A stretch of 64,000 bases of DNA from an archaeon (lineage in GTDB: Archaea; B1Sed10-29; WALL01): assembly GCA_042584585.1 (NCBI GenBank), contig JBHOSQ010000006.1:266-64265 (forward strand), in the 5' to 3' direction. Positions 18,849 through 38,397 of the stretch are shown in pieces (positions within the stretch are counted from its first letter, which is position 1; the number at the start of each line of letters is the position of its first letter). A model generated the notes under the pieces. The model had not been told where the DNA came from and did no database searches. It saw nothing but the letters and a program-made list of their open reading frames with translations. Both the position numbers and the translations under genes were made by a program.

Positions 18849-18857
18849 GAAAAGGCT

Positions 18858-19750: not shown

Positions 19751-19791
19751 GCCTCGAAAAACGCTTCCAAAACACTTAAATCTATCCCCCG

Positions 19792-19847: not shown

Positions 19848-19876
19848 GGTTTTTTATTCTCCGGGCGCTTTGAGAG

Positions 19877-20143
19877 TTGATAATGGTGCTCATTCCAGGG
19901 GACACAACACCAATAACTGTCTCAGCTGTATCGCTCTTGGGGTTGGTTTTGCCTTTCGTGGTTTTGATTTATGCTTACTTTCGTGTTTCCAAAGGAAAAA
20001 TAAATCTCCTCAAAAAGATGACGCCCATACAACTCGGGATACTGCTCCTTTTGATAGTGTGGTTTTGTGTCACCCTAATCTCAGTAATCACCCCGTTTTT
20101 CCGTATTGCGGTGATGGGTAGCCCCTTAGTGTTTACATGGTGA
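19877..20143 (+). CDS. small membrane protein
   Basis: 88 aa with 3 hydrophobic segments. The ATG is 29 nt after TATA ggttttttattc. Confidence 0.5.
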   Translation: MIMVLIPGDTTPITVSAVSLLGLVLPFVVLIYAYFRVSKGKINLLKKMTPIQLGILLLLIVWFCVTLISVITPFFRIAVMGSPLVFTW

Positions 20144-20147
20144 AGAA

Positions 20148-20555
20148 ATGAAACGAATCGCTTTGCTCGCAATCGTGACTCTTGTCGTGCTGGCGGGATG
20201 CTTAGAGACTACATGTTGTGCGTCGACAGCTGCCTACATGGGTAATGAAGTGCAGCAAGTAGACGTCAATCAAAAAAGTATCAGTTCCGTGATTATTGTA
20301 TTTGGTGAGGGTGACACATACACTACAGAACAAGTGGCGTTTGAAGCCAATCGTGAAGGAGAACAAGTGTTGTTTTGTTGTGTTGACTCGCCAGAAGAAA
20401 AATGCGCTGGTTACGAATTCCCGAGCAGTGAATTTGACTGCACCCCAGAAAAAGTCGTGGTAAAAACAGAAACACAAGGCAACATAATGGCCTACGCCGG
20501 CTCTCAAGAACAAGGAACACGCTACTTTTTGGTTGGCATTAAGGTGGTTTCATGA
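20148..20555 (+). CDS. lipoprotein with Cys-rich C-terminal domain
   Basis: MKRIALLAIVTLVVLAGC lipobox. C-terminus LFCCVDSPEEKCAGYEFPSSEFDCTPEKV. It overlaps the next gene by 4 nt (ATGA). Confidence 0.6.
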   Translation: MKRIALLAIVTLVVLAGCLETTCCASTAAYMGNEVQQVDVNQKSISSVIIVFGEGDTYTTEQVAFEANREGEQVLFCCVDSPEEKCAGYEFPSSEFDCTPEKVVVKTETQGNIMAYAGSQEQGTRYFLVGIKVVS

Positions 20556-20965
20556 TATCCAACGCCTTGCTTTTCATTGTTGTTCTGGCCATGCTGGTGG
20601 GTTGCTTGACCCCGCTTTCAACTAACCACAGCCCGATTGTCATGATGGGGCAGGGGCTTAATTTAATCAAGAAGGGTGGGGCAGTCACCATATCGGATTT
20701 GTCTGCCGAATTCATTGAAGGCGGGATTTATGCTGCGGACGCGGCTGCCAGTGAAGCGGTTGGATTGGCTAACGGCAGCGTGTCTTTTTGTTGCCAATTC
20801 ACTCAAGAAGAAAAATGCAGTGGGTTTGAGTTCCCAGAAGATACTTTCGACTGCCAGCCAAGCACGCTAACAGCAAAGAAAACAATACAAGGCAGGATTA
20901 TGGCCTATTGCCGAAAAACCAAGGAAGACTGCTTCATTGGATTCAAATCAGTGGAGGGCGTCTAA
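20552..20965 (+). CDS. lipoprotein with Cys-rich C-terminal domain
   Basis: MISNALLFIVVLAMLVGC lipobox. C-terminus SFCCQFTQEEKCSGFEFPEDTFDCQPSTL...AYC...CFIGFK. Confidence 0.6.
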   Translation: MISNALLFIVVLAMLVGCLTPLSTNHSPIVMMGQGLNLIKKGGAVTISDLSAEFIEGGIYAADAAASEAVGLANGSVSFCCQFTQEEKCSGFEFPEDTFDCQPSTLTAKKTIQGRIMAYCRKTKEDCFIGFKSVEGV

Positions 20966-20984
20966 TGCCTACCTGGTCCCACTC
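20965..20984 (+). pseudogene. shortest 5' fragment (20 nt) of the nuclease gene
   Basis: ATGCCTACCTGGTCCCACTC overlaps the TAA stop of gene 20552..20965 (TAATG) and is joined to H hairpin 1. Confidence 0.6.
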
Positions 20985-21038
20985 AGCTTAAACTAAGCTG
21001 GCACGTTGTCCGTGGCCCCTGCGGGGCCAGCGGACTAA
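20984..21038 (+). repeat. H element copy L (GTCCG...CGGAC subtype)
   Basis: cagcttaAACtaagctg-GCACGTT-gtccgt-ggccccTGCggggcc-agcggac-TAA. Confidence 0.75.
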
Positions 21039-21072
21039 ACACTTTTTATAGGTGGAAAGTGTTGTGGGGGAT

Positions 21073-21378
21073 ATGAACCTAAAGCAAGTCTTGAAGCCAC
21101 GAAAAGGCAGTTTAAAGGTCCTCCTCGTCTTGTTTGTAGTCTTAGTAATTCTGACAATGTACTCCTTTGTGGGACGGAGCTATTCGATACTGGCCCCCTT
21201 CCCCATGATAAGCCAGACTTGTGGTGTAATAGACCCCGTTTGTGCCGTTGAAATTAGCTGGCTTGGGATTATTGGCAGCCTGATAATTTGGATTCTGGTT
21301 TATGTCGCGTCATCCTACTTCTTTTACCAAAAAGAAAAAAAGACGCTGTCTATTGTGAAAAGCACATTCGAAAAATAA
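21073..21378 (+). CDS. small membrane protein
   Basis: ATG 21073 is 30 nt after TATA ctttttatagg. Two or three TM helices. Confidence 0.5.
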   Translation: MNLKQVLKPRKGSLKVLLVLFVVLVILTMYSFVGRSYSILAPFPMISQTCGVIDPVCAVEISWLGIIGSLIIWILVYVASSYFFYQKEKKTLSIVKSTFEK

Positions 21379-21401
21379 GTTGGCAGTGCATAGTCGTTGT
21401 A
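21378..21401 (+). repeat. distant copy of the 23S 3'-trailer processing-stem half
   Basis: agttggcagtgcatagtcgttgta is identical over 24 nt to 35165-35188 and near-identical to the functional stem half at 35329-35354. Confidence 0.8.
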
Positions 21402-21404
21402 AAT

Positions 21405-21460
21405 CAGCTGAAACTCAGCTGGCACGTTAGACTTGGGAGCCTAAAGGCTCCCAGAGGCAG
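21405..21460 (+). repeat. H element copy M
   Basis: cagctgaAACtcagctg-GCACGTTAGACTT-gggagccTAAAggctccc-AGAGGCAG. Confidence 0.8.
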
Positions 21461-21499
21461 CAAAAACCTTTTTATCCTTCCACTGCCTATTCTTTGTTA

Positions 21500-22615
21500 A
21501 TGCCGGGAAAAGAGCTGGAGGAGCGGGCGCCTTTCGACAGGGACAAGTTCTTGTTGAAGATGGGCAAGAAGTCTGCTAGGGACGTCAAGAAATTGATGAG
21601 CGCCAAGCCTCCGGAACTCAAGTCATTGGACCCCGAGTTGAAGAAGCTTGTTGAGGAGCGGATGAAGACCCCTCTCAGCGCGTTTGACCTTAAGTACCGG
21701 TTGTTTGGGGTAGGGAACTACGGCAAGAAGTACAAAAAAGAACAAGTCGGTAGGTACAAGCTTGAGTCCCAAGCAATGTTTATCGCGGGCCAGTTGCACC
21801 TCAAGGACGAGCCGCTTGACGCGCTGTACAGTTATTTTTGGCCTGTTGCCCAGGCGCACTTGAGTATGCCTGAGTACAAGATGCCGGGGGGCATTGGCCG
21901 CAGGAGCCTTAGGGTGGCCAAGCTTATTTCGAAGGCATGGGTTCATTCGCACGCGTTTGATTACGCCAATCTTGAGTTGAAGGACTTCAAGCCGTTTTAT
22001 GGTGGCCACGAGACGCGGACCGTATGGTCTGCGTTGGGCGTGGACATTTTGGGGCGGGCTGGTGACGTGGAAGACATTCCTGCGCTTGACCAGATTTCCG
22101 AGAAGTGTTGGGAGGGCTCGATGGAAGGTGATTGTGGTGCGGCTCGCCGCAAGATTATTTCGAGGGCTGCGCTGAAGGCCACGCTGGACCGTGAGCAGTT
22201 GGAAAAGGTGGGGTTGAAGACGAAGTTGAGTGACGTGCACTTGATTGACAAGCTTGTTCCGTTGATGAACGTTAGTGGGTTGTCGTATGTTTTGCAGGCG
22301 TTTCCGGGGATGAAGGGCATGGCTCGGCTGTCAACGAATCCTGTGGAGGCTTCGTTGGAGGCAAAGGAAATCAAGAAGATTGTTCAGAAGGGTGTGGGCC
22401 GGGAGTTTGAGTTCAAGCCAGGAATGTTTGCTGAGGGCGAGGAGTACGCGTACTACGGGTCCGCACAGTCGTTTGCCGAGGAACACGGCCTGATAAAAGA
22501 CACCGGCAGAAAAGAATACCGCTCCAGCAGAAAGTTCTTCAAGTTCACGCCCAAAGGCAAAAAATTCATCAAGGCCTTGTTCAAAGGGCTGAAAGACATA
22601 CAAATCAAGTTCTAG
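21500..22615 (+). CDS. hypothetical protein
   Basis: 371 aa with a consensus promoter upstream. I recognise no recombinase or nuclease motif. It lies directly upstream of the nuclease gene. Confidence 0.6.
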   Translation: MPGKELEERAPFDRDKFLLKMGKKSARDVKKLMSAKPPELKSLDPELKKLVEERMKTPLSAFDLKYRLFGVGNYGKKYKKEQVGRYKLESQAMFIAGQLHLKDEPLDALYSYFWPVAQAHLSMPEYKMPGGIGRRSLRVAKLISKAWVHSHAFDYANLELKDFKPFYGGHETRTVWSALGVDILGRAGDVEDIPALDQISEKCWEGSMEGDCGAARRKIISRAALKATLDREQLEKVGLKTKLSDVHLIDKLVPLMNVSGLSYVLQAFPGMKGMARLSTNPVEASLEAKEIKKIVQKGVGREFEFKPGMFAEGEEYAYYGSAQSFAEEHGLIKDTGRKEYRSSRKFFKFTPKGKKFIKALFKGLKDIQIKF

Positions 22616-22623
22616 TGCCCCGC

Positions 22624-22640
22624 AACCCTTTTATCCCTCC
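22624..22640 (+). promoter_or_regulatory. BRE/TATA promoter of the intact nuclease gene
   Basis: aacccttttatccctcc, with ATG 22658 29 nt after the TATA start. The same promoter-leader-ATG architecture is seen in the orphan fragments. Confidence 0.65.
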
Positions 22641-22657
22641 ACCGCGTAAAACCGTTG

Positions 22658-23806
22658 ATGCCTACCTGGAGCCACTCCCGCATTTCGACGTACGAGTCCT
22701 GTCCCCTTAAATTCTTTTATTCTTACGTCGAGAAGCCGGATGTTGAGGAGGTATTGGGGGACAATATCGCTCTTGTGCTGGGCAAGAGCTGTCACGAGGC
22801 GCTTGAGTGGCTGTACAAAGAGCTGTCCATGGGCGGGGAGCCCACTCTGGACGACGCTATCGACTATTATACCCAATCCTGGGGCAAGATGTGGACCCCT
22901 GACGTCATTATCCCCAACCACGACGAAAAGACGTGGAAAAGCCTTGGGGTGCGGTACCTTGGCGACTTTTACAACAGGCATTCGCCGTTCATCGAGGACC
23001 GGACGGTTGCCCTCGAGAGAATGATTCGCCTTAAGCTCGGCAAATACAGCTTAATCGGCTATATTGACCGTATTGCCGAGGCTGGTCCCGGCCATTACAA
23101 GGTCATTGACTACAAAACGAATAAGTGGCTGGCGCCCCAGGAAAAGTTTGATTCCGACAGGCAGTTGGCGCTGTACGAGTTGGGGGTTCGTCAAATGTTT
23201 CTTGACGCCAAGAAAGTTGATTTGGTGTGGGAAATGCTTCACTTCAACAAGACCATTGTTTCGCATCGTTCTCCGGCGCAGCTCGCGGAACTGAAGCGCG
23301 ACACCATTGCTATTATACAAGAAATCGAGGAATGCGAAGACTACCCGGCCAAAACCAGTAAGTTGTGTGACTGGTGTTCGTTCCAGGAGATTTGTCCGAA
23401 GAAGAAGCACGAGCGCGCGACCACGCGCATGACGGTACGCGAGTTCCGCAAGGACGAGGGTGTGAAGGTCGCGAACAAGTTTGTGCAGACAAAGCTGAAG
23501 CTGGACGAGTGGGGGTTGAAGACCAACGAGGCGCGGAAGGACGTGTTGGCTTACAGCGAACAGCAGGATACTGCGAGAGTCATTGGGTCGAAGGCGGCTG
23601 TGTCGGTAAGCACGATGAAGAGGGTCTCATTCGACCCGAAGGTTGAGAAGCTGCTGAAGAAAGAGGGGTTGTGGGAGAGGTTTAGTAGGTTGGATAGTGG
23701 GGCTTTGGTTAAGGCGCTGGATGAGTTGGAGCCAAAGCTGAAGAAGAAGCTGGAGAAGCTTGAGGAGAGTAAAGAATCTTTGTCTGTGAGGGTTGTTAAG
23801 AAATAG
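22658..23806 (+). CDS. Cas4/RecB-like PD-(D/E)XK nuclease with predicted 4-Cys (Fe-S) cluster
   Basis: N-terminus MPTWSHSRISTYESCPLKFFY (first Cys). GYIDRI...YKVIDYKT is the D...(D/E)xK motif. QLALYELG is the QxxxY motif. C-terminal CDWCSFQEIC is CxxCx5C. The ATG is 29 nt after the promoter motif. No cas genes are nearby. Confidence 0.85.
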   Translation: MPTWSHSRISTYESCPLKFFYSYVEKPDVEEVLGDNIALVLGKSCHEALEWLYKELSMGGEPTLDDAIDYYTQSWGKMWTPDVIIPNHDEKTWKSLGVRYLGDFYNRHSPFIEDRTVALERMIRLKLGKYSLIGYIDRIAEAGPGHYKVIDYKTNKWLAPQEKFDSDRQLALYELGVRQMFLDAKKVDLVWEMLHFNKTIVSHRSPAQLAELKRDTIAIIQEIEECEDYPAKTSKLCDWCSFQEICPKKKHERATTRMTVREFRKDEGVKVANKFVQTKLKLDEWGLKTNEARKDVLAYSEQQDTARVIGSKAAVSVSTMKRVSFDPKVEKLLKKEGLWERFSRLDSGALVKALDELEPKLKKKLEKLEESKESLSVRVVKK

Positions 23807-26678
23807 TTTCTTCCACAATCCGCCGTTCTTTGGCACTTAAACCGTAGATATCATAAACGAGTTTATCAATCTTTGCATCAATAACAACGATTTCTTTTTC
23901 TAGTTTAGCACGCGCGTCCGTTTGTTTATCTCCAAATTCAGCACATTTGGAAGTTAAGCGCATCAGGACTTTTGCAAGTTTAATAATACTAGTTTTATTT
24001 TTCTCACTTGCGTTCGCTATAGGTAACCGCTCTAAGTACTGTTTATTACAAGAATAGAACCCCCCCCTGAAGGGCGTGCTTATCTTAGTTAAATAAAATG
24101 TTAATAACTTACTATTTAGTATGGCAGTAACATACTCGTAATCGTCATTGTTATCAAGTATAACTCCATTAACATCCACATTATCAAGGCAAAATTCCCC
24201 CTCAGAATCATAAACAGCATTAATACGGTGTGCTAACCGCGGGATGCAAATCTTCGGTAAGTGTTGTTTTGCTAGATTTTTAGGATAAACATATGCATAC
24301 CACTTTGATCCTTTCATCTTACCCTTTTCGCGATTTTCAAGCATTGATTTATTCTTGATTAGGTATTTTGCTAATTTGGGGTATGTTTTCTGCAATCTAT
24401 CAAATGGTAACAATACAGCTCGCCCCTCGGAAAGCACATATGGAAAAACCACGTGCTGTCTTGTTTTTAGTTCTTGGTAACGTTTAACATCAACACCGCT
24501 TAAAACTGGCTTTAGTAAAGGCGATTCAAGAGCAACCTCTTCTTTCAAAGAAACACTAACTAGTTTAGTGGATTCTACTCCGGAAAGTATCAGTGCCTTG
24601 TCTGCACTAGTTTGTACACCCACAAAAATTGATTGGGCTATATCGCCGAGTTTTGGGGATTTTTTTAACTTGTTAATTATTGGAAGCTCACTACTTGAAG
24701 CTAAAATCCAGGGGTCATCTTCTGTTGGGCGCGGAATCACAGATTTACTCAGATTTGTTTCGTTTAGACTCTGATCATTTTTTGTTTGTGTTGTCTTCAA
24801 CTCAGTATATTCAATTGGTTGTTTCGTTCCTTTTTTTAAGAAGAGTAAACAAGTGTATGTTGTGGCCCCTGAGAAAACTTGGAATTGTTTGAAATCAACT
24901 ATTTTGTGGAGCGCTTTCTTTGTGTGTATCACTTTGCGCAAGCCTTTACCATACTCTGCCGTAAAGAACTTAGAGGGTAAAATGTAACCCAACACCCCGC
25001 CTTCCCGCAGAAGACTCAATCCTTTCTCAACAAAAAGGCAATACATGTCATAGTTTCTTGTCGCGGCTTCATAATTAGAACTAAAATAGTTAACATCCTT
25101 CTTATTCATAGTTTGTAAGCGGATATACGGAGGGTTCCCAATTATTACGTCAAACCCACCCTCCTTCATCACATTCTCAAAGTTATCATTCCAGTCGAAA
25201 GTCTTGTCACCCGCCACTCCAGAGTCATCAATAAGGGAATTACCACACTTGATGCTGCCCTCCAAAGAGGGCAAAAGATGCCGTTTCTCAGTCATCTTCA
25301 GTAAAAGATTCAGCTGAGCTATTTCTACTGCTTTTTCATCAAGGTCAACACCGTGGATGTTATTTTTCAATATCTCAATCTTCTTTGTGATACGAGCACC
25401 ATCATCTCCGAGTTTCGACTGTGCATACTGCTTATCGTTCTTCATGTAATACTCATCAAGCACGTCAAAGGCTTTTATCAGAAATGAACCTGAGCCACAT
25501 GCAGGATCAAGTACGCGGATTTTATCCACATCCGCAGGCTTCTTTTTCTTTATTAGTTCGCCCAAAGTGTTCTTCACTATGTAGTCCACAATGTAAGTTG
25601 GTGTGTAGTAAATGCCTTGCTCCTTACGGTGTGATTTGCCCCCCGAAAGCTTAGCGCGTTTAGCCGTCGTCCGCAGGACAGAACCTAAATACTGCTCATA
25701 AACATTCCCAAGTACGTCTGCATCAATCAGCGCGAAGTCATATCGGACATTTCCATCCTTTGAGTAATACAAGGCATCTATGACACCATCAAGAACCGTA
25801 TCTGTTACTTTAACCTTGTCCGCTTCGTGCTCTTTTTCAGCGGTGCGACCGAACAGCTTACTGTCGTAGTTTTCACGATAATAACCAAAAATCTCCTTGA
25901 GTTCACGCGAGAGACTCCCACCCTTTTCGCGATAAGCATTCATGGATTCTTTGAGTTTGTTGCCCTCAATCTTTCTGTCCTCACAAGCACGAATAAAGAT
26001 CAAACGATCGATGATACGTTGAACTATCTCATCGATTTCTTCTTGCGAGTACTTGTCGGGGTGTGCCTTTTTTATGTCTTTTGACAAGGCTGCGCGCCAG
26101 ACTAATAGTTCTTTCAGCAATAGTTCGGAAACGCTCTTGCGTGGCGTCCTCTTGCCAACTGTAATTGCGTAGTCAACCATGGCATTTTTGTCGAACGCTT
26201 CCTTGCTAAGTAACCAGAGCTTGTCGAATTCGTTAAGAAATTGAGTGTAGCGGAGCTCAAACACTTGGTTACGCCAGATGTTTTGCTCATTCCACTCACA
26301 ATTAAAGACCTTGAGTCCCTCAAAATCAGTAAGCACGGCCCAGGTCACTCCTTTGTTGAAACCATAGGATATAGCCTGTTTCGCGAACTCGCTGTTATCT
26401 AAGTTTGCTTTTGCCCCTTTAGCTTCAACGAAAAATCTTATGACGCCATCTAAGCGGAAGGCATAATCCGCACGACCCCGAAGCACGCGCTGCTCTTTAA
26501 TAACCTCATCATCTGTGCGCTCGTTGCGCATATCCCAACCGAGCGCTTCGAATAAGGGTTCAATGAACTCATTTTTAGTGCGTTCCTCGGAATAACCACG
26601 TAACTTGTCCTCGTCAACAATACGCTGGAACTTAGTGATTAACCCTTCAATTCGTTGTTTAGCATTTCCTTTATCCAC
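23796..26678 (-). CDS. Type IIG restriction-modification enzyme (Eco57I/MmeI-like: N-terminal PD-(D/E)XK nuclease fused to gamma-class N6-adenine methyltransferase and target-recognition region)
   Basis: 960 aa. N-terminus RADYAF...FFVEAKG is D...ExK. GIYYTPTYIVDYIV, then VLDPACGSGSFLI (motif I) and FDVIIGNPPYIR (NPPY motif IV). GTG start. AT-rich codon usage unlike the flanks. Confidence 0.85.
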   Translation of the reverse strand: MDKGNAKQRIEGLITKFQRIVDEDKLRGYSEERTKNEFIEPLFEALGWDMRNERTDDEVIKEQRVLRGRADYAFRLDGVIRFFVEAKGAKANLDNSEFAKQAISYGFNKGVTWAVLTDFEGLKVFNCEWNEQNIWRNQVFELRYTQFLNEFDKLWLLSKEAFDKNAMVDYAITVGKRTPRKSVSELLLKELLVWRAALSKDIKKAHPDKYSQEEIDEIVQRIIDRLIFIRACEDRKIEGNKLKESMNAYREKGGSLSRELKEIFGYYRENYDSKLFGRTAEKEHEADKVKVTDTVLDGVIDALYYSKDGNVRYDFALIDADVLGNVYEQYLGSVLRTTAKRAKLSGGKSHRKEQGIYYTPTYIVDYIVKNTLGELIKKKKPADVDKIRVLDPACGSGSFLIKAFDVLDEYYMKNDKQYAQSKLGDDGARITKKIEILKNNIHGVDLDEKAVEIAQLNLLLKMTEKRHLLPSLEGSIKCGNSLIDDSGVAGDKTFDWNDNFENVMKEGGFDVIIGNPPYIRLQTMNKKDVNYFSSNYEAATRNYDMYCLFVEKGLSLLREGGVLGYILPSKFFTAEYGKGLRKVIHTKKALHKIVDFKQFQVFSGATTYTCLLFLKKGTKQPIEYTELKTTQTKNDQSLNETNLSKSVIPRPTEDDPWILASSSELPIINKLKKSPKLGDIAQSIFVGVQTSADKALILSGVESTKLVSVSLKEEVALESPLLKPVLSGVDVKRYQELKTRQHVVFPYVLSEGRAVLLPFDRLQKTYPKLAKYLIKNKSMLENREKGKMKGSKWYAYVYPKNLAKQHLPKICIPRLAHRINAVYDSEGEFCLDNVDVNGVILDNNDDYEYVTAILNSKLLTFYLTKISTPFRGGFYSCNKQYLERLPIANASEKNKTSIIKLAKVLMRLTSKCAEFGDKQTDARAKLEKEIVVIDAKIDKLVYDIYGLSAKERRIVEETIS

Positions 26679-26700
26679 GGACTAGGCTATTGATTTGACG

Positions 26701-26717
26701 AATTTATGCCTACCGGT
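26701..26717 (-). promoter_or_regulatory. island-specific promoter motif (type IIG gene)
   Basis: The reverse complement is accggtaggcataaatt, with the TATA about 28 nt upstream of the GTG start at 26678. Confidence 0.5.
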
Positions 26718-26775
26718 AGCGAGATAGGATCTGATGAACCGAAAAGATCAAAAATGGGGCCTTCGTTAGGCCCCT

Positions 26776-27927
26776 ATGGCGAAGAGTATCTGGGAAACCG
26801 CAGTTGAGGTCCTTAAAAAACACGGTCAACCAATGCATTACACTGAACTATCCAAAAATGTCTTTAAGAGCCATGATACAAAAGGCAAAACCCCTTGGCA
26901 AACACTAAACGCTCAGATGAATCGAAAAAATATGGTTTTCCAGAGATTCGGACCAGGGATATACGGCCTTGTTGAATGGAAGGGACGCAATATCCCTGCG
27001 GGCGAAAAGTACAGGGGATTGTGGCCACTACCAGGAGGAACCAAACAGTACGTAGATACATTATTTTCAGCATTGCGTTATGTAAAAAGAAACAAACCAA
27101 AAATGAAGGAGTTTGTAAAGTGGTTTCTGAAGGAATATGGCAAATTGAAAAGCCCGGGGGTGGCAAGATCTTATATTTACTTGATTAAAAAGCTGGGTTT
27201 CATCAAGAAAGAAGGAAAAATTTACATTCTGACGGACCTCGGAAAAACTGCAGTGAAGACCCGGTCTTACTCTTTTGTTTTTGATGTGTTAGATGCTAGC
27301 TTTTTGGGTGTTAGAGATCTGCTTCAAAGGGTTAAAGGAAAATCGTCCTCTTTAGAAGAGTTAAACAAATTTCTCAAAAATAAATATGGCACGGGTTGGA
27401 AGGGAACCGCACAAGCATTATGGAGAACACGTTGGTTGATAAGTCTAGGCGCACTTGAGAAAAAAGGGGGTAACTATTTTATCACAAAAACCGGGGAAAA
27501 ACTCCTTTCCAGACCACTATTAACAGTTGCAGTAAAAAAAGAAAAAGTAAAGGTTCAAAAAACGCCTCAAGCAAGGATTCGCCGCATAGTCGGGAAAAGA
27601 ACTAGTTTAGCTGGAATGAGTTACGAGCCAGTAAACGAGAAAGGCGTTATATTCCTTTTTGGATACTACCTCAAGAAACTAGGTTTTTCTCATGTCGAAG
27701 CAGTACAAGCAGGATTCCCTGATGCTACGGCAATACGGCCGATAGGCAAAAATAAACTAGAGGAAGTAAGGATAGAGTTTGAGTTCAAAAGCAGTAACTT
27801 CAAACAACACAAGCATATTGTCCAACAATGCGACCTCATAGTATGCTGGCAACATGATTGGAAAGATTGTCCCTTGGACGTTATAGAGTTAAAGAGCAAA
27901 TTGGAAGAGCTTGAAAAGGGTACGTAA
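26776..27927 (+). CDS. HARE-HTH domain protein with C-terminal PD-(D/E)XK-like nuclease fold
   Basis: N-terminus SIWETAVEVLKKHGQPMHYTEL...TPWQTLNAQM...FQRFGPGIYGL is the HARE-HTH signature. C-terminus GFPDATA...VRIEFEFKS...CDLIVCWQHDW fits PD...ExK. It is divergent from the type IIG gene. Confidence 0.6.
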   Translation: MAKSIWETAVEVLKKHGQPMHYTELSKNVFKSHDTKGKTPWQTLNAQMNRKNMVFQRFGPGIYGLVEWKGRNIPAGEKYRGLWPLPGGTKQYVDTLFSALRYVKRNKPKMKEFVKWFLKEYGKLKSPGVARSYIYLIKKLGFIKKEGKIYILTDLGKTAVKTRSYSFVFDVLDASFLGVRDLLQRVKGKSSSLEELNKFLKNKYGTGWKGTAQALWRTRWLISLGALEKKGGNYFITKTGEKLLSRPLLTVAVKKEKVKVQKTPQARIRRIVGKRTSLAGMSYEPVNEKGVIFLFGYYLKKLGFSHVEAVQAGFPDATAIRPIGKNKLEEVRIEFEFKSSNFKQHKHIVQQCDLIVCWQHDWKDCPLDVIELKSKLEELEKGT

Positions 27928-27931
27928 GTAG

Positions 27932-28150
27932 TCAACAAACCCTCGCCATCCTATACCCTCCTTCTTCCGCTTCCTCGGCGCCTCTAAACCAAACCCTGTT
28001 CTCCACCTTTATACGATTAGCGTACATGCAGCCTGGCCGGTGGTAGACGTCCGAGTTCTTACTGCCCACGAACGGGCCTCCGTAGGTCAAGTCGTCCCAT
28101 TGGAGGGCGAGGACGAGAATTAAGAGGATGAGGATTAAACGGTAGTCCAT
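27932..28150 (-). CDS. small membrane-anchored protein with Ada-like metal-binding motif
   Basis: 72 aa with an N-terminal TM (LILILLILVLAL). VYHRPGCMYANRI...FRGAEEAEEGGYRMARVC resembles the YHxxxC...GYRxC motif. Confidence 0.4.
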   Translation of the reverse strand: MDYRLILILLILVLALQWDDLTYGGPFVGSKNSDVYHRPGCMYANRIKVENRVWFRGAEEAEEGGYRMARVC

Positions 28151-28188
28151 AAACTAAGTGAGCAAAAATTCGTTTAAATAGGCTTCGC

Positions 28189-28536
28189 CTATGTAACTTG
28201 CCGAGAATGTCTCTCTTTTTCCCTTGCTTTAGCCTTCTGGCGATATTCCTTCAGATAGGCCTTCCTTTTCGTTGTCTGGTCTCGTTTCCGTAACCGTTTC
28301 TTCACTTCGGGACGCCGATTATACTCATAAGCATACTCGCGCTTCCGTTCTTTAGCTTCAGGACGCTGCTGATACTCACGTATGTACTTTCGCCTACGCT
28401 CCTTGACGTCTGGACGCTGGAAATACGCCTTAGCATACTCTGCCCTACGCGTCTTGGGTTCATCCTTTTTGTAGTACTCCCGCATATACTCTCGTAAGTA
28501 CTCACGTCGCTTTTGTTCAGGTGTTGATGTAGGCAT
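28189..28536 (-). CDS. highly basic tandem-repeat protein
   Basis: 115 aa with about three repeats of a ~17-aa unit (QRPDVKERRRKYIREY / QRPEAKERKREYAYEY / RRPEVKKRLRKR). Function unknown. Confidence 0.5.
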   Translation of the reverse strand: MPTSTPEQKRREYLREYMREYYKKDEPKTRRAEYAKAYFQRPDVKERRRKYIREYQQRPEAKERKREYAYEYNRRPEVKKRLRKRDQTTKRKAYLKEYRQKAKAREKERHSRQVT

Positions 28537-28597
28537 TGATTGCTTCTTTGGAACACACGATTGATAAAGCTTTGGCTAATAACCCTTCATCGCCTTC

Positions 28598-29716
28598 CTA
28601 CACTCCTTTCCTAACCCATTCGCCGATAGTACCATTTTTCTCAATTTTCTTGACTAATCCCGAATCTGGAAAATTGTCACCTAGAGACGAATTACACCAT
28701 TTGCAGGTTAGGTAAAGATTATCTGGATGGTTTACATTAGTATGCAAAAAAGTAAATTTACTGGCCCAGTTTTGGGGGATTATATGGCCAAACGCCAGGT
28801 CTTTATCCAGAATGTCTGCAAAGGGCTTGTGTTCACAACCAGTCCCCGGGCAGGTCTTAGCATGTTTCCGTGCATAGCTCTTTAGCTTCTTTGATCTATG
28901 GCCCTTAAGATTCTCAAAACTATATTCCATAGCCATTTCTTCATCAAGAGGTCGCCGTTGTTTTATATCGTGGGATATTTCTGAAGCAAAAAGTCCATTT
29001 ATGATTTCCATGGCATCGTTTCTGCCTAGTAACTGCACCTCAACTGGATCCTGTATCCGGCTTTTTCTTTTTGTAGGCTTAATCTTACCTGGGCAGATTA
29101 TGAATACTTGGTTTAACCCTTCATCTATCTTGTAATCAAACCACATTACCACAAGAACTAACCCAGAATAATACAACTCTTTTGCGAGTAACTCAGTGAA
29201 ACGATATCGGAGCATGCCCACCCAATTTAAAGGAGGTTGATATACAAAAGTACCATCTGGCGAGATTTCGTCTTTATAGTTCCCAAAAGAATGTCTGAAT
29301 GCTAACAGCGTAAGTTTATTTTTGGAGAGTAAGACACCATGTTCTTCTGGACGGAGTATCCGTGATTTTTTGTTTGTGGGTAACAATTGAGCCCCTAAAG
29401 AAACTAATTTATCTGCAGTGAATACATCTAAATCCCGATCCCGCATCTGCCAAGCACGAATGAATGCTGGGGGCGTACTTACTAATGGGAGCATACGGCG
29501 TATTTGAGCGTAGGTGTAATGCAATTCTTGTTCATAAAAAACGGGTTTTTTGTTAAGACGACTAAAACTTCTCATTAAAGAATCTTTACTTACTAGAATC
29601 GTCCCTTCGTGCCCGTGAATAGAAACTTTCTTGTCTGTATCACTGTATGACTCAATGTATTCAACAAGCTTGCCTTTAGTCTTTTTTATGCGCTGTTGAA
29701 GGAGAGTTTCCACCAT
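28598..29716 (-). CDS. HNH endonuclease with large uncharacterised N-terminal domain
   Basis: C-terminus CPGTGCEH...FGHIIPQNW...HPDNLYLTCKWCNSSLG is an HNH beta-beta-alpha-Me motif with flanking Cys pairs. The N-terminal ~280 aa is unassigned. It shares promoter motif CCGRTAGGCATAAATT with the type IIG gene. Confidence 0.7.
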   Translation of the reverse strand: MVETLLQQRIKKTKGKLVEYIESYSDTDKKVSIHGHEGTILVSKDSLMRSFSRLNKKPVFYEQELHYTYAQIRRMLPLVSTPPAFIRAWQMRDRDLDVFTADKLVSLGAQLLPTNKKSRILRPEEHGVLLSKNKLTLLAFRHSFGNYKDEISPDGTFVYQPPLNWVGMLRYRFTELLAKELYYSGLVLVVMWFDYKIDEGLNQVFIICPGKIKPTKRKSRIQDPVEVQLLGRNDAMEIINGLFASEISHDIKQRRPLDEEMAMEYSFENLKGHRSKKLKSYARKHAKTCPGTGCEHKPFADILDKDLAFGHIIPQNWASKFTFLHTNVNHPDNLYLTCKWCNSSLGDNFPDSGLVKKIEKNGTIGEWVRKGV

Positions 29717-29737
29717 AACTGCCTTAGTGGGTGGCTT

Positions 29738-29754
29738 AATTTATGCCTATCGGT
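29738..29754 (-). promoter_or_regulatory. island-specific promoter motif (HNH gene)
   Basis: The reverse complement is accgataggcataaatt, with the TATA about 25 nt upstream of ATG 29716. It matches 26701-26717 at 16 of 17 positions. Confidence 0.5.
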
Positions 29755-29900
29755 CCATCAACCATAGGCCACGTCTATATCCTCCGTCCCTTTAGCAATC
29801 CATCGCTCAAGCATCAAACCGAGCTTCTAGGCATACTAATATATTAAAAATGGGTGTACCACTATAATCTTTATTCCATGAAGTCCCATAGTGATAATCC

Positions 29901-32042
29901 ATGAAAAAACCCGTGAAAACCATCAAGTTTACGGTTGACGCCAAACTCCTTGAAGAACTTGGTGAACGTTTGGTAGGAAAACCGTACGTAGCCCTAGCCG
30001 AATTGATCAAAAACAGTTATGACGCAGATGCCACGAAGGTAACAATAAAACTTGATGATCAAAACGATTCAATAACTATAGAGGATAACGGACACGGCAT
30101 GAATAAGACTGAATTCACGAACTTTTGGATGCGCATAGGATCAAGGCATAAGGAAAGACAGAAATTTTCAACGGGATTTAAGAGGCCAATCACGGGATCT
30201 AAGGGAGTCGGGAGACTGGCGGTACAACTCTTAGCAAATAACCTACTACTTGAGACCGTGTCCAAAAAGGATAAGACTAAAAAGATAATCTCACGTGTTG
30301 ATTGGAAAAAAGCGATTAACCAAGGTGAGCTGACCAACGCCGAAGCGGAGTATGAGACTAAAAAATCAAAAGAAGGCTTCAAGCCTGGGACAAAGATTAC
30401 TCTCAATGGATTAAAACAGAAGTGGGATGACGAAAAGATAGGTGGTTTGGCTACGCAGATATGGGTTTTACAGCCCCCCTTTGGTGGAAAGTCGCTTGGA
30501 AAGAAAGAACAAAGAATTGCTTTTGATATAGATCTTGAATCTCCTAACAAAGAATTGGAGAAAGAATTTAAGGATAAAATTAACGCGATTAGAGGGATAT
30601 GGCACGCAAGGATAGTTGGCGAAAACAAAAAAGGCCGCGTTAAAATCCACTTTGAGTTCCGAGGGGGAGAACCAAAAACGTGGGAATTTAGAATACCCCA
30701 CGCTGCCCTTGAGGGTGGAAACTTCGACATACGAGTGTATAAATTACAAGGAAAACAGCCAGAAGGGATACTGGTGGATGACGCCCGTGACTATTTAAGA
30801 ACCCACGGGGGAGTCCATGTGTATGACACTGGCTTCCATCTCCCACAGTATGGGAGCGGCCCTGAAGAAGATTGGTTGGGTCTAGAAATGCAACACGCAC
30901 ATCGATTGAGTAAGTCTCAGCTGTTGCCAGACAATATGCAAAAGGACTTTGAACACCCACTGAATAACATTCCTACCCTAACCCGTGTTTTGGGTGTTGT
31001 AAATGTGAACACATCAAAAGAAACAGATTTAGACATACTTGTAACCAGAGATAGACTAAAAGACACCCAAGCGTTTCAGGATCTAAAACTGATCTGCCAG
31101 ACTGCCATGCATTTCTATGCAGTGGAAGAAACGAGAAGGAAAAATCGGGTGAGGGCAAGATGGGGCGAGATAAAGAAAAAAGATGAGGAATTTAAGAGAG
31201 TGGAGGAAGTTCTTGAAAAGCACAAGTCGCAGATTCCTAAAAAAGTGTATGAAGAAGTCCACGAGAACATTGAACGGGTTATGGACAAGATTGGAACAGA
31301 ATCGAAGGCAGTAACGAAGAGACTGTCTTTAATGGGTGCTCTCGCCACGGCTGGCATTTCGTCTCTAGCAGTGCAACACGAATTGAAGAGACAGTTTAAA
31401 GGTATTAGGGACATAACTGTCCAGATAGACCAACTCAACATAAAAGATAAAGAAGAGAGAGCAAGATTACAGAACTTGAAAAGGAAGTTAACGGATTGGC
31501 TCCATCGAGCTGAAGCAGTAAATAATCTCTTTGCTTATGTGACTGATGAAAGTAACAGGGGCAAAGCGAGTAGATCCCGCGCCCTAAGTGTTGTAAAAGA
31601 GCTCGTGGGACAATTAGGGCCAGTTATGGAGGGGGCAACTATTCATACAGATAGATTGGATAAGGATATACTCCTCCCCAAAGCAACAATGGCGGAATGG
31701 GGCTCAATATTCCAAAATGTGTTCTTGAACGCATTTAATGCCATGCTTAGTTCTAAGAAAAAGATTATCGATGTGAGTTCAAGAAGGGAGGGTAAATCGC
31801 GCGAGATTGTAATACAGGACACCGGTTGTGGTCTTGAACTCAAGAATTCGGAGAAACTATTCGAACTTTTCGAACGGGGGGCGGAGTTATCCTCCGCACG
31901 ACGGGATCTGGGATATGGTGGGGGCGGAATGGGACTCACGATAGTGAGGTTCATTGCGAGGAATATAGGCTGTAAAGTCGCATTCGTAGAACCAGAGGAT
32001 GGATTCAAAACTGCATTTAGCATAAAATGGGAGGAGATATGA
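29901..32042 (+). CDS. dual GHKL protein: N-terminal MORC/Hsp90-like ATPase (HATPase_c_3-type) fused to a C-terminal histidine-kinase core (HisKA-like H-box plus HATPase_c)
   Basis: N-terminus: LAELIKNSYDADA (Bergerat motif I), IEDNGHGM (motif II), GSKGVGRLA (motif III). C-terminus: SLAVQHELKRQF (H-box-like), IFQNVFLNAFNAM (N box), IQDTGCGL (G1), LFELFERG (F), GGGGMGLTIV (G2). Confidence 0.8.
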   Translation: MKKPVKTIKFTVDAKLLEELGERLVGKPYVALAELIKNSYDADATKVTIKLDDQNDSITIEDNGHGMNKTEFTNFWMRIGSRHKERQKFSTGFKRPITGSKGVGRLAVQLLANNLLLETVSKKDKTKKIISRVDWKKAINQGELTNAEAEYETKKSKEGFKPGTKITLNGLKQKWDDEKIGGLATQIWVLQPPFGGKSLGKKEQRIAFDIDLESPNKELEKEFKDKINAIRGIWHARIVGENKKGRVKIHFEFRGGEPKTWEFRIPHAALEGGNFDIRVYKLQGKQPEGILVDDARDYLRTHGGVHVYDTGFHLPQYGSGPEEDWLGLEMQHAHRLSKSQLLPDNMQKDFEHPLNNIPTLTRVLGVVNVNTSKETDLDILVTRDRLKDTQAFQDLKLICQTAMHFYAVEETRRKNRVRARWGEIKKKDEEFKRVEEVLEKHKSQIPKKVYEEVHENIERVMDKIGTESKAVTKRLSLMGALATAGISSLAVQHELKRQFKGIRDITVQIDQLNIKDKEERARLQNLKRKLTDWLHRAEAVNNLFAYVTDESNRGKASRSRALSVVKELVGQLGPVMEGATIHTDRLDKDILLPKATMAEWGSIFQNVFLNAFNAMLSSKKKIIDVSSRREGKSREIVIQDTGCGLELKNSEKLFELFERGAELSSARRDLGYGGGGMGLTIVRFIARNIGCKVAFVEPEDGFKTAFSIKWEEI

Positions 32043-32043
32043 C

Positions 32044-33252
32044 ATGGGCAAGGGCAAGATATTTGTGTATGATGATGAACCAGAAAGCGCAACACAATAC
32101 AAAAATAAATTAGAACACCTTGGGATTGTTTCAAAGAAGTTCAAAGTCGAACGTATAACAAAAGAAGAGTTTGAAAATCCGAAAAAAGGGATTGGAATAT
32201 TGCGAGATAGACGAGAAAAGTTAAGATCCAAAAAGATAAGGTTAGAGGGCTCTATATTCGACGAAGAAAATGCCATATTTCTTATAGATTACGATCTTGT
32301 TGGGGGTGCTGAACAACTCGGTATCCGGACTGGCGAAGATGTAGCATACTTTCTACGCTGTTTTTCGAAGTGTGGTTTGATAATCGGGGTGAGCACATTA
32401 TGGGATAATGTTTTCGACCTCTCACTCAAAAGCGAATCAGAGCATTATTTAGACTTGCGGATTGGTGGAGCTCAAGTGGATAATGCGAGGTTATGGGGTG
32501 AAGGAGAAGAGGAGTTCAGGCCATGGTCCTGGCCTGACTTAAACCGCTTATCCGAGACCTTTGAAAAGAGAGTACGAGATGTGAAAAGTAACTTTGACAA
32601 AGAGATATACGACACACTCGGTTTCTCAACTAGCATAGCTAAATACCTCCCCCCGTCCGTAAGTGAGTTTTTGGGTGGTGAACCACTTAAAGTGACATTC
32701 AGAGACTTCCTCACAGGATCTGAGAAAGGCTTAGATGGCAAAGACCGGGATTACGTCGATAACCTCCCAAAAAATCAACAAGCCAGGTTAACTGCGGCAC
32801 GGTTGTCCAGATGGCTTGAAACGGTTGTCTTGCCCGATCAGGATATTCTTGTGGATGCCCCCCACCTCGTCTCCAGGCTACCAACTCTCTTGAAAAAGAC
32901 CAACCCAACTGTAGAGGATCTAAATAAGACAGCTAGTTTTGGAGACGCGGAAAAACTTGGGCTGAAACATGAAGATATAGAAGAGTTCAGATTCAAGAAG
33001 GACTATTGGTTATCCAGATCAGCGTGGTTTTGGAGTGAACTCTCTGAGAATATAGACTGGTTAAAACAAAAAGGGGGAAAAAGAGTGTTGCTCAATGATA
33101 ACGTATTCTGTGAAGATACATCTAGATTTCACAAAAGAGAGCGATGTAAGGAATTCGAGGCAGATATATCCTCCCCGTATAGACGGCGTTACGTGAAAAA
33201 ACTGGGCGGCGATTTTAGGTATGAGAACCCCGGCAGACTCTCCAGCATTTGA
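32044..33252 (+). CDS. receiver(REC)-like N-terminal domain protein with uncharacterised ~270-aa C-terminal domain
   Basis: The start is 1 nt after the upstream stop, with GGGAGGAG SD-like sequence upstream. KIFVYDDEPE (acidic pocket-like) and AIFLIDYDLVGG (candidate phospho-acceptor Asp) suggest a divergent REC fold. The spacing is longer than canonical. Confidence 0.5.
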   Translation: MGKGKIFVYDDEPESATQYKNKLEHLGIVSKKFKVERITKEEFENPKKGIGILRDRREKLRSKKIRLEGSIFDEENAIFLIDYDLVGGAEQLGIRTGEDVAYFLRCFSKCGLIIGVSTLWDNVFDLSLKSESEHYLDLRIGGAQVDNARLWGEGEEEFRPWSWPDLNRLSETFEKRVRDVKSNFDKEIYDTLGFSTSIAKYLPPSVSEFLGGEPLKVTFRDFLTGSEKGLDGKDRDYVDNLPKNQQARLTAARLSRWLETVVLPDQDILVDAPHLVSRLPTLLKKTNPTVEDLNKTASFGDAEKLGLKHEDIEEFRFKKDYWLSRSAWFWSELSENIDWLKQKGGKRVLLNDNVFCEDTSRFHKRERCKEFEADISSPYRRRYVKKLGGDFRYENPGRLSSI

Positions 33253-33295
33253 ATTGGCGTTATTCCAATAAAAAAATACGGAGTAGGAATTGAAA

Positions 33296-33976
33296 ATGAG
33301 TTATGGATCTTCACCCGATCAGATTTTTTCCACAATGTTAGGAATGTTCAAAGGACTACTCGATCACTCAGCTAGTATGTATAACACCGACCGAGGAGAG
33401 CGGATCCCAGATAGCGCGAAAGAGTCGTATAACGGACTAGCACGAAAACTTGAACCCATAACAACGAAAGAGCTTGAGGTGGTGTTTAAAGATAAGGATT
33501 TCTCTCTTTTGGAAACAAAGCCATTGTATCTGCCTTATGCTGATGACGACCAAAAAGTCATACCAATAATCCAAGGTATAGAGTTTGATTTCGCTAGGGA
33601 AACCGATAATATCAAAATCAAATTAGCACTTTGTGATTATTCCAAACCAGAAGAGTATGGTTGCAGGTGTGTTTGTTTCCGACTTGAAGGACCCCACCCC
33701 TCAAACAGTAAACATAACTATTATCATTTGCAAGTCACCGCAGTAGAGGGCGCATTAAAGGAATTTGTGCGGGACACACAAACTGAAGATCTGCAAGAGC
33801 CTATTGATTGGATCCCCGAACATGCGCCACGTATCCCCCTAATGGCAGAGTGCCCTGTAACTCTCCTCATAGCTCTTTTACTCAGTTTGTACGGGAGCAA
33901 ACGAATAGTGAAATATGTTGATCTTAATCGGTTGGATGGGAAATGGCCAGGACTGTTTAACGACATAATGTCCTGA
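33296..33976 (+). CDS. hypothetical protein, third gene of the GHKL operon
   Basis: About 226 aa, same strand, 40-nt gap with GGAG upstream. A hydrophobic segment VTLLIALLLSLYG lies near the C-terminus. No domain recognised. Confidence 0.55.
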   Translation: MSYGSSPDQIFSTMLGMFKGLLDHSASMYNTDRGERIPDSAKESYNGLARKLEPITTKELEVVFKDKDFSLLETKPLYLPYADDDQKVIPIIQGIEFDFARETDNIKIKLALCDYSKPEEYGCRCVCFRLEGPHPSNSKHNYYHLQVTAVEGALKEFVRDTQTEDLQEPIDWIPEHAPRIPLMAECPVTLLIALLLSLYGSKRIVKYVDLNRLDGKWPGLFNDIMS

Positions 33977-34010
33977 GGGGCAGCTTTTTTACTTCGTGAA
34001 TGCCAAGGTA

Positions 34011-35072
34011 TTATGCACATCGCTTCAAATGCTCTTGTATGGAGCGCCCTATTGCCTCTGCCAATTTAACAGGAACTGCATTGCCAATTAGCCGTCCTAA
34101 CTCACCCTTACATACCCGTGCACCATCTGGAACAAATCTATAGTTTGCTGGAAAGGTTTGTAGCAAAGCCGCTTCCCTGAAAGAGATGGCCCTGTCTTGT
34201 TCGGGATGTCCAAAACGACCAGTTCCGTAGATGTATGATTGTGTTGTGATTGTGGGGGACGGTTTGTCCCATTCCATCCGACCATACACCGGCGTATAAC
34301 TTTTACCGGAAGGTTTTTTGTGGCATTCTAGCCTGAGGCGTGGTGGCCAGTCCATCCAAGTGCCACCTGGTTTAGAAGCTCTTATCCTTTCCAGGTTTTT
34401 GCTGCTCAAGCGTGAAGCTTCGTGTATAAAATCGTTAGCATCTTGCTCACCTGCATGTAGAGGTGAGAGAGCGCCTATCGCTCCTCTGACTGTGGAGTAT
34501 TCTGTTTCATCAGCACAAATCGGCGGGATCATATTTATCTTACCAAGCCGTGAAGCTAAAAGCACTAACCTACGCCGACTTTGTGGCACCCCATAACCCC
34601 GGCAATCTCGTATCGCCCAATCTGTTTGATATTCCAACTTGTCAAGTGCCGACAAAAAATCCTGGAACACTTCGTGCCTACACAGCCCGGGCACATTCTC
34701 CATCGTAACTATATCAGGAGTGATATTGCGAATGCACCGAGTGAAGGAGTTCAACAGCCTCCACTTATCATTTTTCTTGTCGCTATCATCTTTCTTGTCG
34801 CGCTTATGCCCTAACTGGGAGAACGGTTGACAAGGCGCACACCCCGCCAGTATCCGCACGCCATTTTTGGGATAAAGAGCTTCAATGTCTCGACTGGTCA
34901 TTCTTTTGATATCCCCTTCAATAAAGACTGCGTCCGTGTTCTCCTCGTAGGGGAAACGGCACGCGGGATCGTTGTCTATGCCCGCCACGACCTTAATGCC
35001 TTCTCGCTCCAAACCATAGGTTAACCCCCCAGCACCGCAAAATAGGTCAATGGCGTAGGCATCTGAGGGCAT
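34011..35072 (-). CDS. dcm: DNA (cytosine-5)-methyltransferase
   Basis: All hallmark motifs are present: DLFCGAGGLTYG (I), GCAPCQPFS (IV, PCQ), TMENVPGL (VI, ENV), QSRRRLVLLAS (VIII), GNAVPVKLAEAIG (X). TATA ttataaata lies 25 nt upstream. Confidence 0.92.
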   Translation of the reverse strand: MPSDAYAIDLFCGAGGLTYGLEREGIKVVAGIDNDPACRFPYEENTDAVFIEGDIKRMTSRDIEALYPKNGVRILAGCAPCQPFSQLGHKRDKKDDSDKKNDKWRLLNSFTRCIRNITPDIVTMENVPGLCRHEVFQDFLSALDKLEYQTDWAIRDCRGYGVPQSRRRLVLLASRLGKINMIPPICADETEYSTVRGAIGALSPLHAGEQDANDFIHEASRLSSKNLERIRASKPGGTWMDWPPRLRLECHKKPSGKSYTPVYGRMEWDKPSPTITTQSYIYGTGRFGHPEQDRAISFREAALLQTFPANYRFVPDGARVCKGELGRLIGNAVPVKLAEAIGRSIQEHLKRCA

Positions 35073-35164
35073 CGCGTAAGATACAGCGGAGGGGTATTTA
35101 TAACCTTTATAGGGCCTTACCTGACTTCCACTAGAGCTACAGCTAACCTTTTAAACCAAAAAAA

Positions 35165-35188
35165 TAGTTGGCAGTGCATAGTCGTTGT
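35165..35188 (+). repeat. second copy of the 23S 3'-trailer processing-stem half
   Basis: agttggcagtgcatagtcgttgta, located 140 nt outside the functional copy and at the right edge of the AT-rich island. Confidence 0.8.
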
Positions 35189-35328
35189 ATATGCCGGATT
35201 AACCGCCAATGCTGGCCTTCCAACAAATAACTATGAACTCAACCAGTAGGAGTGGCACGTACATATGTGCCATTATATATCCTTTAGTTAAATGAATCCG
35301 CATAAGCTCAAACTCAAATAATTGGGGT

Positions 35329-35354
35329 AGTTGGCGTGTGCATAGTCGTTGTGA
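35329..35354 (-). other. 23S rRNA 3' processing-stem half
   Basis: Its reverse complement ..CACAACGACUAUGCACACGCCAACU pairs with 5' flank GUGCAUAGUCGUUGU (38429-38443). A further GUAGGUU/AACCUAC pairing lies next to the mature ends. Confidence 0.75.
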
Positions 35355-35383
35355 ATGAGGTGTAGGTTTCTGTGCAATTCCAT

Positions 35384-38397
<3,014 letters not shown>

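Follow-up and report, generated by a model that had tools for sequence, protein, structure and literature searches.

Extra copies of a 23S rRNA processing-stem half beside the rRNA operon of a DPANN archaeon: possible scars of cassette boundaries

INTRODUCTION

Why should one half of a 23S rRNA processing stem occur three times beside an rRNA operon? This question was raised by a stretch of 64,000 nt (bases 266-64265 of contig C6, referred to throughout as the window) from a metagenome-assembled genome (MAG) of a DPANN archaeon, an assembly of 1.017 Mb in 32 contigs that is 84% complete. An earlier note on this DNA had taken the repeats for the mark of foreign DNA integrated into, or next to, an RNA gene. 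The answer proposed here is that the extra stem halves are DNA-level duplicates of the distal 23S trailer, produced by repeated insertion and reshuffling of gene cassettes at the outer end of the rRNA operon; we give this answer about an even chance of being right. The collections contain a single close relative, "Candidatus Iainarchaeum archaeon RS_17_2," a DPANN MAG of the same genus (referred to here as the sister species), and these are the two genomes of the genus that have an assembled 23S trailer.

RESULTS

One processing stem and two extra halves

The 24-mer AGTTGGCAGTGCATAGTCGTTGTA was found without mismatch at 21378-21401 (copy A, annotated on the plus strand) and at 35166-35189 (copy B, annotated on the minus strand); no match was expected from shuffled sequences. 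The earlier note had correctly reported this identity, and its position for the second copy (35165-35188) was one base off. When the A-run on the left and a following AAT were included (21371-21404 for copy A), the two copies agreed at 31 of 34 positions. Copy C, which lies next to the 23S rRNA gene (35391-38389, minus strand), reads AGTTGGCGTGTGCATAGTCGTTGTG at 35329-35353 and has diverged from the 24-mer. A 15-nt core, GTGCATAGTCGTTGT (35338-35352 in copy C), is common to all three, and its reverse complement is present in the 5' flank of the 23S gene at 38429-38443.

In archaeal 16S and 23S precursors (Euryarchaeota and TACK), a long helix is interrupted by a 3-nt bulge on each strand, with 4 bp of helix between the two bulges, and cleavage by EndA gives a circular pre-rRNA. 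A pair of 40-nt segments with 80% complementarity was found to flank the mature 23S, and its pairing could be assigned as follows. The 3' half of the stem, at 35329-35368 (minus strand), faces a 5' half at 38413-38443 (minus strand); the pairing with 38429-38443 had been claimed before and is borne out. The outer helix consists of 15 perfect base pairs (leader GUGCAUAGUCGUUGU, 38429-38443; trailer ACAACGACUAUGCAC, 35338-35352) and is followed by a trailer bulge of 3 nt, AUU (35354-35356), that has no counterpart in the leader. A central helix of 4 bp (leader GAGG, 38424-38427; trailer CCUC, 35357-35360) leads to a leader bulge of 3 nt, AAA (38421-38423), with no counterpart in the trailer, and then to an inner helix of 8 bp (leader UGUAGGUU, 38413-38420; trailer AACCUACA, 35361-35368). 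Two 3-nt bulges on opposite strands, with a 4-bp helix between them, could thus be read directly from the sequence, and the central register of the minimum-free-energy fold from RNAcofold was slightly shifted relative to the canonical arrangement. Judged from the sequence, copy C and the leader are deduced to form the genuine processing stem of the 23S rRNA, in which the bulge-helix-bulge (BHB) motif is canonical.

Among copies A, B, and C, only copy C has the partner sequences of the BHB motif. The predicted duplex energies with the leader were -47.2 kcal/mol for C, -40.2 kcal/mol for B, and -37.3 kcal/mol for A. In a predicted cofold of the leader with the full trailer, C held the BHB stem while the leader segment UUGGCAG (38464-38470, minus strand) paired with CUGCCAA of copy B; this second pairing is lost in copy C through a 2-nt insertion. 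Copy B had also been suggested to offer the 23S leader an alternative partner. This is physically plausible, B being probably transcribed (see below), and the predicted energies are about -40 kcal/mol for B versus -47 kcal/mol for C.

Copy B as the probable ancestral distal trailer

Copy B does not include the BHB part of the stem, and its 24-mer agrees at every base with the copy beside the 23S gene of the sister species. To its left, about 40 nt (35128-35165, minus strand; CCACTAGAGCTACAGCTAACCTTTTAAACC plus A7) are conserved with the flank of that same sister-species copy and with the flanks of two internal copies of that species. Because both the outer flank and the 24-mer match the 23S-adjacent copy of the sister species, B was deduced to be orthologous to the ancestral distal trailer. 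On the minus strand, the A7 at 35158-35164 becomes U7. It is the only strong oligo-U run, it is located past B rather than past C, and it is likely to be the terminator of the rRNA operon. Archaeal RNA polymerase terminates at oligo-T. Since the only strong oligo-U run follows B, copy B very probably lies inside the primary rRNA transcript. The helix formed by copy C and the leader, with its 3-nt bulges and 4-bp helix, is like the BHB stems of other archaeal rRNAs; unlike those described, it is accompanied by two extra stem-half copies here, B among them, and by five extra copies in the sister species. We know of no description of duplicated rRNA processing-stem halves.

The trailer of this genome has 164 bases more than that of the sister species, namely, a spacer of 139 nt between B and C (35190-35328) and the stem-half version of copy C; the distance of about 140 nt given by the earlier note was therefore close. 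The spacer is single-copy in the genome, has no Rfam match, and shows no H-like signal (the H element is described below). It was considered as a small RNA or a mobile element, and both were rejected on the basis of its single copy, the lack of an Rfam match, and a folding z of -1.0, which is no better than that of shuffled sequences. It is probably an insertion remnant. The spacer starts with TATGCCGGATT (35190-35200), and a near-complement, AATCCGCATA (35294-35303; 10/11 match), is found 25 nt before its end, so that the pair looks like terminal inverted repeats.

Distribution of the copies

In the whole assembly, the 15-mer core occurs four times only, as A, B, C, and the leader complement, and a blastn-short search of this genome returned no degenerate copies beyond these. 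The possibility of a common dispersed repeat, which would have undone the earlier note's case, was thereby removed. The sister species has four exact cores. When 185,579 species genomes were searched for exact matches to the 24-mer, only the sister-species contig was returned, and metagenome scans for a 22-mer and for the L-H junction pattern (L, the trailer stem half; H, the element described below) gave no match. In both genomes of the genus, all core copies lie on the rRNA contig, in trailer orientation, within 14 kb of the 23S 3' end. The core 13-mer was absent from four other genomes of the family, and four other genera (two of the same family and two of the same order) had no trailer repeats within 8-20 kb of the 23S.

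Copy A at a proposed cassette boundary

Copy A is preceded by an open reading frame (ORF), ORF108 (21052-21378, plus strand), the stop codon of which overlaps the A-run and the 24-mer. This cassette payload encodes a small predicted membrane protein with no Pfam or PHROG match and with no homologue among the sister-species array ORFs or in relatives. The H element to which the earlier note had seen copy A fused is indeed there, starting 3 nt past the copy (21404-21466, plus strand; two hairpins) with the constant left end CAGCTG. It is followed by a promoter-like motif, AAAAACCTTTTTATCC (21460-21477, plus strand), and by an orphan gene of 373 amino acids (gene373; 21494-22615, plus strand) that has normal G+C content (GC), no family match, and no homologue in 30 relatives or in the sister-species array. 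Next is a gene for a Cas4-like PD-(D/E)XK nuclease (22655-23806, plus strand). This gene is conserved in the genus (81% amino acid identity and 78% DNA identity to the sister-species orthologue) and anchors the left-hand cassette array.

The H element is modular; it has two hairpins, and its GGCACGTT linker is conserved. In this genome, 34 nhmmer matches were obtained on 10 contigs, 13 of them on the rRNA contig; within the window they lie at 3897-21466 (plus strand) and 46915-48267 (minus strand). H elements typically start within a few bases of a stop codon, also after ordinary core genes. Examples are the one after a chaperonin-like GGM tail (C9:36459) and, following a tRNA 3' end, the one at C13:14425. 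Hairpin 1 has four fully compensated variants, and the only non-Watson-Crick pairs that preserve its pairing are G.T, all in the sense strand. Because of these two features, H is suggested, from its sequence variants, to be an RNA-level structure in 3' untranslated regions (UTRs). Among the 185,579 species genomes, the H motif was found in this genus only, and it has no Rfam match even at E <= 5.

In the array at 3.9-22.7 kb, H meets 5' stumps of the nuclease gene at variable positions in the stump and always with the same H end. The payload genes are orphan or species-specific. The boundary at copy A has the same layout, i.e., a payload (ORF108), an anchor stump, and the constant H left end, the stump being from the 23S trailer rather than from the nuclease gene. 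Because copy A matches the anatomy of the other cassette boundaries, it was read as a cassette-boundary scar and not as the left attachment (att) site of the island.

Among the payloads of the left-hand array is a Fic/DOC-family protein with a C-terminal HTH_17 domain (10055-10975, minus strand). A match to the first 29 amino acids of the nuclease was also observed at a contig end in a distant genus of the same class and a different family (G019:C11:26-109), which has a full-length homologue too; nuclease 5' stumps may not be confined to this genus.

Trailer-type boundaries in the sister species

In the sister species, the locus (L014) corresponds to G002:C7:54200-74155, with the 23S 3' end at position 18946 of the locus and the contig ending within the 23S gene. 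Six trailer pieces were found at 13040, 14342, 15389, 16237, 17755, and 18875, all within 5.9 kb of the 23S. The piece at 18875 is the true trailer, and the other five are internal. On the right, all five internal pieces run into the constant left end of an H element (CAGCTK AAAC...), giving five trailer-type boundaries, and every H element is followed by a promoter-like GCTTTTATAG with unrelated ORFs behind it. The joins fall after GCATAG (15389) or after GGTGYATCY (the other four), and in the window the join falls after GTTGTAAAT. Thus, three different breakpoints are seen across the two species, with no constant crossover point. The left ends of the internal pieces vary as well, some having a 35-nt outer flank and others the A-run only, and one trailer copy is truncated inside the core helix. 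A 12-nt core, CATAGTCGTTGT, is invariant in 8/8 full-length copies aligned, with variable flanks. The sister-species copies not adjacent to the 23S have drifted by 1-4 positions and have kept the trailer-side bulge and the CCUC strand.

Two of the H-promoter modules of the sister species are 98% identical in one half and 82% identical in the other, and this mosaic similarity fits frequent recombination. Nuclease stumps are present in both species. The sister-species nuclease orthologue (C7:49136-50281) lies left of the trailer copies, at a distance of about 17 kb from the leftmost one. The 20-kb locus is AT-rich throughout. To the left of the leftmost trailer copy (13040), neither an H element nor a trailer copy was found, so that the left border of the AT-rich island there has no copy. 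In both species, an H-free AT-rich island abuts the conserved outer flank. For two cassette genes of the sister species, this genome has no homologue.

The gene abutting the 23S trailer in the sister species (L014:17889-18863; G002:C7:72088-73059) encodes a homing-endonuclease-like protein of 324 amino acids with helix-turn-helix (HTH), NUMOD3, and DUF559/Vsr-like domains. No trace of it was found in this genome or in 39 other relatives, making it unique among the 41 searched. Homing-endonuclease insertion was therefore rejected as a general explanation.

The interval between copies A and B

An AT-rich defence island extends from 23796 to 35127 (about 38-46% GC; no H element). Its genes encode a type IIG restriction-modification system, a HARE-HTH protein, an HNH-like protein, a GHKL ATPase operon, and a C5 methyltransferase. 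The drop in GC starts at about 23.8 kb, which is 2.4 kb to the right of copy A, and the first 2.4 kb of the interval have host-like GC, an H element, gene373, and the nuclease gene. On the other side, copy B had been placed exactly at the right edge of the island. It does adjoin that edge, but the operon flank of about 40 nt lies in between. The repeats therefore do not coincide with the borders of the foreign DNA, the left border being 2.4 kb inside A and the right border about 40 nt outside B.

No integrase or transposase was detected among the ORFs at 21.4-35.2 kb with Pfam, PHROGs, or PADLOC, and the remainder of the window likewise gave none. A PF00589 tyrosine recombinase was matched nowhere in the 84%-complete assembly, and all 14 control genomes were matched; the gene may be absent through incompleteness of the assembly. 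This lack includes XerA-type PF00589 matches, and the sister species has one PF00589 gene, on another contig. RAYT/IS200-type transposases (RAYT, REP-associated tyrosine transposase) were absent from the window ORFs screened with Pfam, the rest of the genome not having been screened for this family.

The rRNA operon

The operon further comprises a 16S rRNA gene (39299-40771, minus strand) and a tRNA-Ala gene (39063-39138, minus strand). No 5S rRNA gene was detected beside it in the window (1-64000). An ORF of about 146 amino acids (about 38607-39047, minus strand), with a CxxC...CxxC pattern and a K/E-rich tail, lies inside the operon, in the interval between tRNA-Ala and the 23S leader. The 16S 3' spacer contains a hairpin with a 9-bp stem, GACGTTGAC-TTCG-GTCAACGTC (39256-39279), that recurs at 93-96% identity in long H variants (at 3925, 9862, and 11115 and also on contigs C2 and C8). 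It is a second rRNA-spacer piece associated with H elements.

DISCUSSION

Proposed cassette movement at the trailer

The proposed course of events at this locus is as follows. Copy C is the working stem half, which forms the BHB motif with the 5' leader. Copy B, together with its outer flank of about 40 nt and the T7 run, would represent the original distal trailer and terminator, split from C by an insertion that is now down to 139 nt. Copy A would be what is left of a trailer where the ORF108 cassette ends on the right, and the following H element would be attached to this stump by its constant left end; copy A was probably carried with its cassette from the trailer-side array. The defence island would fill a variable slot of its own, bounded by the nuclease gene on one side and by the conserved outer flank on the other, and no left trailer copy would be needed for it. 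The cassettes could have moved through recombination of H modules (H-by-H exchange of looped-out cassettes) or through a single crossover in trailer/H homology.

Several observations weigh against these duplicates having arisen by cassette movement. Copy A, copy B, and the sister-species trailer are identical over 24/24 nt, versus the 1-4 drifted positions of the sister-species copies not adjacent to the 23S, and copy A must accordingly be young or constrained. Copies A and B also leave the trailer homology within one base of each other (3-4 nt past the 24-mer), as would a pair produced by one event. No cassette common to both arrays or to both species was found, so that movement is deduced indirectly. 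No enzyme was identified, and a recombinase could be missing from the assembly at its present completeness. Finally, the proposal is based on two genomes.

A further-reaching version of cassette movement is possible, and we put it forward tentatively. In this version the locus would record an undescribed cassette-capture system in which H-led gene blocks enter at two anchors, leaving a stump and regenerating the anchor each time, without a tyrosine or serine recombinase. The two anchors would be the 5' end of the Cas4-like nuclease gene and the 3' processing stem and terminator of the rRNA operon, and copy B would be part of a two-part pre-23S stem. The anchoring nuclease itself might be the catalyst.

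Other explanations of the three copies

The copies might instead be kept for a function in RNA, which we find doubtful. Copy B could act as the outermost part of the stem or as a decoy for the leader, or the T-run and stem half could serve anew, as a terminator on the minus strand and, in the mRNAs of plus-strand cassettes, as a 3' UTR segment that pairs in antisense. Such uses would account for the invariance of the 12-nt core in the eight full-length copies with variable flanks, for the identity of the 24-mer in two species that share only 78% identity in nuclease DNA, and for the trailer-side bulge and CCUC strand kept in the sister-species copies. They would also agree with the cofold in which the leader UUGGCAG pairs with B while C keeps the BHB motif and with the adjoining H element, which is probably an RNA-level element by its sense-only G.U wobbles. 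However, copy A and the internal copies of the sister species lie past oligo-T runs on the rRNA strand, among genes of the opposite strand, and no complementary partner on the plus strand was found anywhere in the genome. The variable copy ends, with one copy truncated inside the core helix, and the lack of such copies in other genera also argue against a function.

Equally questionable is accretion in place, in which the distal trailer would at first have lain where copy A is now, with gene373, the nuclease gene, the island, copy B, and the spacer inserted stepwise to the right of A, each step regenerating a copy. Two observations favor it: the AAT of copy A continues into the AATGAGG typical of this genome's own trailer, and the sister-species cassettes clearly build up between the leftmost copy and the 23S. 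But the nuclease gene, which anchors the stump array in both species, would then have to have been inserted into the trailer, i.e., to have moved relative to the sister species, and copy A does not have the outer flank that B and the leftmost sister-species copy keep.

The integration proposed by the earlier note corresponds to A and B being attL and attR of one 13.8-kb element, or a few tandem elements, inserted site specifically in the 23S trailer. We consider this unlikely. It is suggested by the exact 24-nt direct repeats (31/34 with flanks), which leave the trailer homology at nearly one position, by the AT-rich defence island within the interval, and by the confinement of the copies to the neighborhood of the rRNA operon. 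Tandem accretion with partial RNA-gene repeats is, moreover, well known for tRNA-targeting elements (bioRxiv 10.1101/2020.12.28.424599). Against it, no integrase was found in the interval, the window, or the assembly, and the left 2.4 kb have host-like GC, an H element, and a nuclease gene conserved in the genus. The conserved outer flank is at B, although an att pair would lead one to expect it at the leftmost copy, and the trailer/H junctions are heterogeneous, unlike the product of a site-specific crossover. No empty site, for which the earlier note had looked to relatives, was found, and the sister species carries a different island without a left-hand copy. What remains of that proposal is that RNA-flank repeats mark insertion here, in the sense that the copies occur only near the 23S and that the six-copy array of the sister species lies at cassette borders; A and B as the att pair of one element were not supported.

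That the MAG contig is chimeric at short repeats, so that the three-copy layout exists in no single cell, is very improbable: the assembly is fragmented (32 contigs) and incomplete and its rRNA contig has a GC of 0.50 versus about 0.55 for the other contigs, but the repeats (24-34 nt) fall below the k-mer length usual in the last round of assembly, the island accounts for the lower GC, and the independently assembled sister MAG has the same kind of trailer-H junction, reported six times.

Relation to known systems

The islands show a likeness to the tycheposon islands of Prochlorococcus, in which elements accrete in tandem at tRNA and transfer-messenger RNA (tmRNA) genes, partial copies of the gene 3' end are scattered, older modules are pushed outward, and degenerate remnants persist (bioRxiv 10.1101/2020.12.28.424599). 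In both cases, variable islands beside a structural RNA gene contain partial copies of its 3' part. Unlike in tycheposons, the repeated piece here is the noncoding 3' processing-stem and terminator flank of an rRNA operon and not part of a tRNA, no integrase was detectable, the right-hand junctions vary in position, and each copy is fused to a host-specific hairpin element and a promoter-like motif.

Integrons and clusters of attC sites lacking integron integrases (CALINs), including archaeal ones, consist of co-oriented blocks of unrelated genes with a structured repeat between them, are anchored at one end, and often have no integrase nearby (PMC9668308). The present arrays are similar in having short, mostly co-oriented, unrelated blocks with a structured repeat and an anchor at one end. 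However, on inspection, H shows no R''/L''...L'/R' architecture of the attC kind, and it has no Rfam match, and it also follows core genes throughout the genome. It does contain GTTAGRC (which fits GTTRRRY) between two independent hairpins, and by inspection, no dedicated attC model having been applied, no paired RYYYAAC was found at attC spacing. The cassettes differ from those of integrons in having their own promoter-like motif, and IntI is lacking, as no PF00589 match was obtained in the assembly. In addition, the boundaries carry anchor stumps (the nuclease 5' end or the 23S trailer), which integrons are not known to make.

The repetitive extragenic palindromes (REP) and interspersed mosaic elements (BIME) of bacteria are short structured repeats just after stop codons, gene-oriented, present many times per genome, and lineage-specific. 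The H element resembles them in being short, structured, located after stop codons, gene-oriented, multicopy, and lineage-specific. It differs from them in its two hairpins with a GGCACGTT linker and modular build, and no RAYT/IS200-type gene was present among the window ORFs screened with Pfam.

Significance

For annotation, the locus carries a warning that a pair of RNA-flank repeats should not automatically be taken as the att sites of the DNA between them. For RNA biology, it raises the question of a primary rRNA transcript that probably has two copies of one processing-stem half. For the organism, the duplication of the distal trailer by cassette movement would mean that, in a reduced DPANN genome, the noncoding trailer of the rRNA operon can repeatedly serve accessory genes as a landing site. 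This role is filled by tRNA 3' ends elsewhere; here it would be filled without a visible integrase and with irregular borders. The trailer copies and the nuclease-stump array would provide two independent anchors with the same stump-plus-H signature, a pattern from which a new recombination mechanism could be worked out. If cassette capture at these anchors is true, the extra trailer copies would be the footprints of that mechanism.

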